Of a stretch of DNA of 48,684 nt, positions 8,113 through 8,565 are shown in pieces. The position numbers and the translations under genes are program-made. Within the stretch, counting starts at the first letter, position 1, and every line of letters begins with the position of its first letter. This stretch comes from a virus, in IMG/VR virus record IMGVR_UViG_3300036766_000644, positions 1 through 48,684 of that record; one strand, 5' to 3'. The notes below the pieces were generated by a model. That model was not told where the DNA came from and did not search any database. It saw nothing but the letters and a program-made list of their open reading frames with translations.

Positions 8113-8312
8113 GGGCCGAGCCCAAGAGCTGGAGATGTCCGTCGGACCCAAGGAGGAGTTCCCTGGCGGAGGCGCGCAATCAAAGTAATCGCTGTTGTCG
8201 AGCACGGGACTGAGTACCCCCAGTCCTCACCGCACATTGTACTTCACGCAAATCAGCCTACTGGTTGTTACCAGCGTCTCCGTAGCGGAGACTTCTTACT
8301 GCTGGCCTTCGG

Positions 8313-8335
8313 CCAATCTGATCTGATCAGATTGG
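8313..8335. repeat. perfect 23-bp palindrome CCAATCTGATC-T-GATCAGATTGG
   Basis: Exact inverted repeat containing two GATC sites. Lies in a 450-bp non-coding region. Confidence 0.8.
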
Positions 8336-8457
8336 TGTCGCCAGGAGCTCCAGCTCGGACCCGAACCTGGATCCGCATGCAGTCCCCTGGAGGAGCTCAC
8401 CTGGTGCGAGATGTAGAACAAAGTGATTCAAGCGTGAACTAGTCCTGAAGATCCAGA

Positions 8458-8483
8458 GCCTCCGTAGTGGAGGCCTTTTTTTG
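8458..8483 (+). terminator. intrinsic terminator with CC-GTAGT-GG loop
   Basis: Stem GCCTCC / GGAGGC, loop GTAGT, followed by CTTTTTTTGTG. Confidence 0.65.
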
Positions 8484-8565
8484 TGTGGGCCTAGCCCACT
8501 AAACGCTCGAGGGATGTCCGGGCCGGACGTTCCCAAAGTAGTGCACGCGTAACAAAGGAGAAGCC

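Follow-up and report, generated by a model that had tools for sequence, protein, structure and literature searches.

What can a phage be keeping in some 450 nucleotides that encode no protein? Positions 8113–8565 of a 48,684-nucleotide viral sequence (IMG/VR record IMGVR_UViG_3300036766_000644; the whole stretch is called the window here) lie between a terminator-like hairpin and the next gene. A sequence-only reading of the window had offered a structured non-coding RNA, a site for a dimeric regulator, and an origin or packaging site as candidates for this gap, with a possible role for methylation. We find in the gap a module free of ORFs that is conserved in a clade of uncultivated jumbo phages and composed of three paralogous units of ~ 95 nt. 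Its conservation, the covariation of its hairpins, the paralogy of its units and the lack of an ORF are direct observations. As to function, the sequence comparisons described below tentatively favour, as the most likely reading, structured RNA or transcription punctuation on the + strand, in the form of units resembling sibling small RNAs or of an array of terminators and processing sites.

Genomic setting

The window has a G+C content of ~ 0.60. Small + strand genes and five tRNA genes occupy it up to ~ 13.4 kb, beyond which the genes are on the − strand. The phage lineage is essentially unannotated, most of its large ORFs having no Pfam or PHROG match. Pfam and PHROG searches with ~ 30 window proteins matched almost nothing; one − strand gene has a weak match to a head-maturation protease, and the ten large − strand ORFs (291–927 aa) at 13600–48600 are without a Pfam match, eight of the ten also without a PHROG match. 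In-frame tandem repeats occur at 920–988 and 47502–47681, with 12-nt units (AAGAAGGCCTCG) and 57-nt units, the latter within the large − strand ORF 47112–48605. The tRNA genes lie at 5798–6624, those for Thr, Leu and Gln on the + strand and the other two on the − strand; the anticodon loop of the − strand tRNA at 6473–6547 is abnormal according to ARAGORN. Between the tRNA genes is an ORF (~ 5910–6310) whose counterpart in L105, one of the relatives described below, carries PF11645 (PDDEXK_5).

The gap contains no credible ORF, in agreement with the sequence-only reading. Stop-free stretches change strand and frame among relatives, indels in the alignments of relatives are not multiples of three, a block at 8416–8442 has stops in all three + frames, and gene callers left the gap empty on ~ 12 related contigs. 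Clustering of ORF peptides was uninformative because nucleotide conservation links all frames. Short peptides starting from GGAG-ATG (8134, 8514) were rejected, since relatives do not preserve their frames and L103, L108 and L110 lack the ATG.

The gene expected at 8566 is indeed present: 8566–8874 encodes a DUF3846 protein (Pfam E = 5e-24) with a ribosome-binding site at 8555–8560 and its ATG at 8566. Upstream of the gap, 7844–8071 encodes a 75-aa protein that is conserved in this clade only, with a Lys/Arg-rich N terminus and an invariant segment, TPLELAxxLKVPGxEARSxxVLYLRE. It shows a helix-turn-helix-like pattern and has no detectable homology; its structural model (three helices, moderate confidence, pLDDT 70) gave no significant PDB match in a fold search.

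The module is conserved in a jumbo-phage clade

The first relative, L001, was obtained by an exact-match scan with the palindrome at 8313–8335 and lies on a 190-kb viral contig, the surroundings being only ~ 75% identical. Further scans and look-ups via DUF3846 homologues provided the others. In all, 14 distinct relatives were recovered from viral and metagenome contigs, and every one has kept the gap; alignment A4 thus comprises 15 versions including the window, a number of related sequences that limits statistical power. The relatives come from freshwater and sediment samples (among the latter JGI Ga0315278–Ga0315291 and Ga0105097) and their contigs measure 142–196 kb, which indicates that the window is part of an uncultivated jumbo-phage lineage. 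The identity of DUF3846 to that of the window ranges from 98% down to ~ 60%.

Several non-coding blocks are better conserved than the flanking proteins, in phages that are only ~ 65–75% identical. Invariant or near-invariant are CAATCAAAGTAATCGC, CCAGCGTCTCCGTAGYGGAGAC, TGATC-W-GATCA with its flanks, GAACAcAGTGATTCAAGCGTGAACTAG, GCCTCCGTAGTGGAGGC and CCCAAAGTAGTnCACGCG, and the block at 8416–8442 is near-invariant over 27 nt. In a module without coding capacity, conservation beyond that of the adjacent proteins marks a function that the phage cannot lose.

The module is absent from the more distant DUF3846 phage L012 (55% identity), and a covariance model found it at none of the distant DUF3846 loci; it is therefore not a general DUF3846 leader. 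A blastn search with 7800–8900 against 50,697 public phage records gave no match. A scan of bacterial and archaeal genomes for the conserved block returned only a chance match in an archaeal MAG (L112), and a metagenome match (L090) was also due to chance. Besides L001, the viral scan with the 17-mer palindrome core gave chance matches only; a viral scan with the 15-mer CAAAGTAGTNCACGC gave ~ 120 unrelated chance matches and was uninformative. The Rfam search of the window at gathering thresholds recovered only tRNAs, and the best match in a permissive search of 7700–8700 scored 22.7 bits, the threshold being 70.

An array of three paralogous units

Three + strand hairpins give the module its rhythm: T1 (8083–8103, listed as 8084–8102; loop G-UAG-U, plus CTTCTTTTT; a U-rich run at 8103–8112 follows), T2 (8276–8292; GTCTCC-GTAGC-GGAGAC) and T3 (8458–8474; GCCTCC-GTAGT-GGAGGC, extending to 8482 with its U run, CTTTTTTT; found by scan and alignment). 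All three share the loop G-UAG-Y closed by CC/GG, a fourth hairpin of this kind lies at 11699–11715, and GUAGY-loop hairpins occur on the gene strand only, in the window and in every relative. After each of T1, T2 and T3 comes a mini hairpin of 5–6 bp with a 3-nt loop: M1 (TTGGGC-CGA-GCCCAA, 8111–8125, directly after T1), Ha (TGGCC-TTC-GGCCA, 8303–8315) and M3 (TGGGC-CTA-GCCCA, 8486–8498), which are paralogues.

This order recurs over longer stretches. The 3′ end of the 75-aa gene together with T1 and M1 forms a unit, U0, that is collinear over ~ 95 nt with U2 (8226–8316) and U3 (8408–8500). A covariance model of U3 alone found a full-length match to U2 in the window (8228–8302) and in six relatives (20–27 bits), and it matched U0 in two loci. 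From the collinearity and the matches of the U3 model we conclude that the region is an array of three paralogous units. In each, a short single-stranded stretch that is conserved (..GCG-A/T..YAG) is combined with a variable small hairpin, a hairpin of 6–7 bp that bears the fixed G-UAG-Y loop, and a mini hairpin; U2 ends in T2 and U3 in T3. As a terminator-type hairpin, T1 belongs both to the upstream 75-aa gene and to the first unit of the array; T3 is the terminator-type end of the non-coding unit. The end of the 75-aa gene doubles as part of U0, since the nucleotides at its stop site (GCGATTAG) stay invariant where the encoded amino acid varies (S/R/C).

A motif, AGTRRTYCAMGCG, is present in four copies (8184, 8239, 8422 and 8537) and one inverted copy (8432–8444). 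The first lies in the nearly invariant CAATCAAAGTAATCGC (8177–8192). The second, with the conserved AATCAGCC (consensus AAGTAGTTCACGCGAATCAGC; 8237–8258), starts U2. The third is followed by the inverted copy (GTAGAACAaAGTGATTCAAGCGTGAACTAG); this stretch (8413–8442) starts U3 and is near-invariant in 12 of the 15 versions. The fourth (CCCAAAGTAGTGCACGCG, 8532–8549) stands 6 nt 5′ of the DUF3846 ribosome-binding site. The small variable hairpins are Hx in U2 (CTGGT-TGTT-ACCAG, 8261–8274) and E in U3 (8443–8456), the latter read by eye from alignment A5 and weak in the window itself.

Between the units lie spacers, all parts of which were again placed on the + strand. The first holds P1 (TCCGTC...GGCGGA, 8138–8170), with a conserved 3′ arm (GGCGGAG) and a variable 5′ arm, and the stem-loop H1 (8197–8235), whose top hairpin at 8206–8227 is variable in sequence; P1 was read from the alignments and kept outside the formal pairing score because its columns are out of register. 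The second holds the palindrome Pal (8313–8335; predicted stem of up to 10 bp with a CWG loop), whose first three bases are overlapped by the 3′ arm of Ha, and the variable segment D (8336–8415), which has indels in the alignments. D keeps the short palindromes GAGCTC (8345–8350 and 8393–8398) and ACC-W-GGT (8399–8405), and in most relatives it has a CCTGG...CCAGG hairpin. The third consists of the palindromic hairpin Pal4 (GGGATGTCCGG-G-CCGGACGTTCC, 8511–8533), just upstream of motif copy 4 and degenerate in L103, L108 and L110.

Most of the features first noticed in the gap can be placed on this map. The terminators seen near 8084 and 8458 correspond to the terminator-like hairpins T1 and T3, and the hairpins at 8261–8274 and 8276–8292 are real; the one given as 8196–8216 was misplaced, the stable hairpin being that at 8206–8227. 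The GAGCTC inverted pair exists too, with its second copy at 8393–8398 and not at 8385.

Hairpins covary and hint at + strand RNA

The pairing of nine hairpins was scored on A4. Standard pairs fill 90.1% of the cells, compared with 28–46% when the partners are slid, and 19 pairs show changes on both sides compared with 4–10 in the controls; the observed values were reached in none of 500 shuffles. The stems of T1 and T3 vary freely and stay paired: T1 (helix 1) has 99% of cells paired and three pairs with compensatory changes, T3 (helix 7) 100% and three, and M3 (helix 8) 100% and two. M1 (helix 2) has three pairs changed on both sides. Ha (helix 5) has a pair, 8306/8312, that is CG in seven versions, AU in five and GC in two. 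Hx (helix 3) is 75% paired, with GGT/ACC, GGC/GCC, GGGA/TCCC and GGAT/ATCC variants, and Pal4 (helix 10) 69% paired. The stem sequence of T2 (helix 4) is nearly invariant. In the top of H1, E, Hx and the mini hairpins M1, Ha and M3, shape is kept and sequence is replaced among relatives, as in the TCGAT/ATCGA, TTCGCT/AGCGAA, CTTC/GAAG and CTGAA/TTCAG versions of E. All-against-all pairing of columns gave mostly cross-matches among the similar T hairpins and was set aside.

The wobbles give a hint of the strand. Across the T hairpins, six cells are U.G or G.U and none is A.C, a pattern that fits only + strand RNA; in T1 the U.G wobbles arise in the + sense only. The restriction of the GUAGY-loop hairpins to the gene strand points the same way. 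Folding-energy z-scores are equal on both strands and modest for single sequences, so that the preference of raw energies for the reverse strand is a composition effect.

The scan found G+C-rich stem-loops of the intrinsic-terminator kind at T1, T2 and T3, and compensatory changes preserve their stems. U runs directly follow T1 and T3 in the window; in several relatives they are weak or displaced by 2–5 nt, the U tract of T3 among the weak ones. T2 is not a canonical terminator, since it has no U tract in any version.

No promoter of known type, σ70 included, was found in 8078–8565. CTGGCCGAGCCAGTGC was dismissed as a σ54 site for want of a conserved −12 GC. Early-type promoters (a T run, then TGGTATAMA) lie outside the gap, at 5030, 5728 and 7829; only 7 nt separate the end of the element at 7829 from the ATG, suggesting an mRNA with no leader or almost none. 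Terminator plus promoter-like sites, in which a T run precedes (T/G)GGTATA(A/C)(G/A), are seen at 5010–5040, 5715–5740 and 7815–7840. The sole near-consensus σ70 promoter within 5–12 kb (TTGACA-16-TATTAT, − strand, 7051–7078) is upstream of a − strand gene (6687–6977) with a weak match to PTH2 peptidyl-tRNA hydrolase.

A structured non-coding RNA, one of the functions proposed at the outset, is the best-supported candidate, with nine hairpins that carry compensatory changes across 15 versions and with the shapes of the H1 top and E retained; it is not proven. We infer transcription, its strand, the transcript ends and any partner as follows. The module would be transcribed on the + strand with the early genes and would act as RNA, the array sitting between immediate-early and later genes. 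T1 and T3, each a hairpin with a U run, may end or attenuate transcription that starts from the TGGTATACA promoter at 7829. The segment that separates them, ~ 8195–8480, could yield either one structured RNA or two RNAs resembling sibling small RNAs, namely U2 with the putative seed AAUCAGC, and U3 with the putative seed GUGAACUAG, hairpin E and T3. In the second spacer, Pal would form the stem-loop. Pairing would maintain its lower stem, whereas its top, the invariant UGAUC-W-GAUCA, would present a surface recognized by a protein or used in loop–loop pairing.

Sibling small RNAs arranged in tandem, e.g. LhrC1-4, PrrF1/2 and OmrA/B, are a close parallel to the second of these products. The array likewise has two paralogous units of ~ 70 nt in one intergenic region, each having a conserved single-stranded (unpaired) stretch and a small hairpin and ending in another hairpin; it differs in that it is phage-encoded, is known from sequence alone and has a T2 devoid of a U tail. 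The nut sites of phage λ, in which a boxB-type hairpin with a fixed loop and boxA are used by the arginine-rich N protein, are comparable in their short variable stems, fixed 5-nt loop and repetition in early transcription units, and here too the gene immediately upstream codes for a small basic protein. However, the loop sequence is another one, no boxA stood out, two of the array's hairpins look like terminators, and no homologue of N was found. The hairpin promoters of the phage N4 virion RNA polymerase share the stem of 5–7 bp, the 3-nt loop and the repetition in an early region; in contrast, no giant virion RNA polymerase is seen here, the hairpins are 3′ of genes and are followed by U runs, and the genome type is different.

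We speculate that the GUAGY-loop hairpins, the AGUAGU-type single-stranded motifs (with which they have the core GUAGU in common) and the UGAUC-W-GAUCA stem-loop might together form an undescribed RNA-based control module of a jumbo-phage clade, in which a phage protein would read the fixed loops and choose termination or else read-through (or processing) where the immediate-early genes meet the later ones, sibling small RNAs being released as well. In this specific form the proposal is a long shot.

The palindrome and a possible role at the DNA level

The exact palindrome at 8313–8335, CCAATCTGATC-T-GATCAGATTGG with its two GATC sites, is as described in the sequence-only reading; no other perfect palindrome in the window is as long. 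Of 30 mononucleotide shuffles of the 48.7 kb, however, three produced arms of ≥ 11 bp, and the significance of the palindrome therefore lies in its conservation in relatives and not in its length. Its absence from close relatives would have spoken against a function; it is clearly present in them. The core TGATC-W-GATCA is invariant in all relatives, the centre being only A or T. Arm position 6 (8318/8330) is C:G in 10 and T:A in 5 of the 15 versions; no version combines the two, and those with T:A are dispersed over the neighbour-joining tree, which implies at least three switches. This is the sole covarying position of Pal (helix 6), and no wobble intermediate was seen. As RNA, Pal folds with −15.1 kcal/mol (z = −2.55).

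These properties can also be read at the level of DNA. The main rival of the RNA reading, which we rate as possible but rather unlikely, is a control region in which the palindrome is the operator of a dimeric protein, the AGTRRTYCAMGCG copies are promoters or binding sites for a phage sigma factor, RNA polymerase or regulator that switch on the DUF3846 operon, and the hairpins are ordinary terminators. The perfect dyad, conserved in relatives, with its invariant core and a centre restricted to A/T, would fit the dimeric-regulator site that had been suggested. Perfect dyads of ~ 20 bp in non-coding DNA are likewise features of dimeric-repressor operators (lac O-sym, 434/P22) and parS-type palindromes. 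Unlike those, the palindrome has a single non-coding copy, whether of the whole or of its core, in the 48.7 kb, lies away from any recognizable promoter, changes its arms symmetrically and repeatedly and is embedded among covarying hairpins; a switch from C:G to T:A in both arms alike is seen more typically where bases pair.

Other features of the module weigh on the same choice. In unit C, in L097 and at ~ 11810, the motif precedes the next gene's ribosome-binding site or start codon by 6–20 nt, as would suit a DNA element, yet it matches no known promoter consensus. The GGAGATGTC / GGGATGTCC boxes are jointly changed to GGACA... in L103, L108 and L110 (the GGAGATGTC-type boxes being those of units A and C), and ACC-W-GGT (7 nt) and GAGCTC are conserved though too short to fold; like the A/T-only palindrome centre, both observations count against RNA. 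Protein binding, on the other hand, would leave many unrelated compensatory hairpins unexplained. The 75-aa protein, conserved and with its helix-turn-helix-like pattern, is a candidate for the regulator, but it lacks a significant structural match, its residues do not correlate with the state of the palindrome, and in L105 and L115, which have kept the palindrome, a different gene precedes T1 and the 75-aa protein is missing there.

That the GATC pair might be under methylation control was also suggested. The two sites are 5 bp apart and invariant in all relatives, which would suit a Dam-methylation switch governing the binding of a regulator. But GATC is frequent in the window (133 sites, slightly above the shuffled expectation and with no depletion), so the sites in the palindrome are not special; no methyltransferase and no Lrp/OxyR-type site was identified; and the invariance covers the whole 11-nt core and not just the GATCs. 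The suggestion thus gains no support, and we regard such a switch as the least probable of all the explanations.

A non-coding region with repeated motifs and palindromes, which could be landing sites for proteins, might equally be a replication origin or packaging site, and origins often hold promoters and GATC sites. The data do not bear this out. Cumulative GC skew rises smoothly without an inflection, G+C is 0.54–0.58 throughout with no AT-rich unwinding element, the motif copies are irregularly spaced (55, 183 and 115 nt) where iterons would be regular, no terminase or initiator gene adjoins, and compensatory evolution of hairpins is not expected of a double-stranded origin. We consider this explanation very improbable.

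Cassettes at sites of gene exchange

The module is a place of gain and loss. H1 with motif copy 1 is deleted in L098 and L106 and duplicated in L103 and L110. L097 has lost DUF3846 and kept the whole module; at 2280–2400 of this locus, motif copy 4 (CCCAAAGTAGTACACGCG) immediately abuts the counterpart of the next window gene, 8867–9043, without a Shine–Dalgarno sequence. A second ORF-free cassette, built like the gap, lies at 11544–11826: a degenerate T hairpin (GTCACCGTATCGGCGAC) and a mini hairpin that covaries in relatives (ACAAAGC-CAA-GCTTTGT), followed by ACGCAAATCAG, the T hairpin GTCGCCGTAGTGGCGAC at 11699–11715, and CAAAGTAAGGGAG ahead of the ATG at 11826. Here the window alone has an insert of ~ 140 nt with an extra T hairpin, which the relatives are without.

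PeSLs, the composite terminator/promoter cassettes of T4-like phages (Arbiol et al. 2010, PMC2839356; Comeau et al. 2014, PMC4122927), behave similarly. Both are short cassettes of a conserved stem-loop plus regulatory sequence, repeated between small early ORFs of large phages, and both flank insertions, deletions and gene replacements, which matches the modularity of the present module. PeSLs, however, have a recognizable σ70 (or Mot) promoter and no conserved loop, whereas the array has no known promoter consensus, a fixed GUAGY loop, a tandem arrangement without ORFs and highly conserved spacers.

The array might accordingly be a stack of 'empty' cassettes of the PeSL type, recombination punctuation for gene gain and loss that came to stand in tandem after ORFs were lost and that has no dedicated RNA product. 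Stem-loop cassettes do recur in the genome at operon borders, and indels do fall at cassette borders, as in the changes to H1, the loss of DUF3846 right after motif copy 4, the other gene before T1 in L105 and L115 and the window-only insert at 11.7 kb. Yet the stem-loops have no σ70-type promoter, and the spacers, i.e. the palindrome and the 27-nt block, surpass the neighbouring proteins in conservation, which argues that the spacers have a function of their own and weakens this explanation; we think it improbable. The RNA, DNA-control and empty-cassette readings are not mutually exclusive.

Significance

Should the preferred reading of the gap as + strand RNA be true, the array would represent a new RNA motif family, defined by hairpins with a fixed GUAGY loop and a palindromic stem-loop, and would provide a handle on the punctuation of early transcription in uncultivated jumbo phages. 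Should the DNA reading be true instead, the gap would contain the first candidate promoter and operator sequences of this clade. Under either reading, the cassettes mark sites at which genes are swapped in and out.
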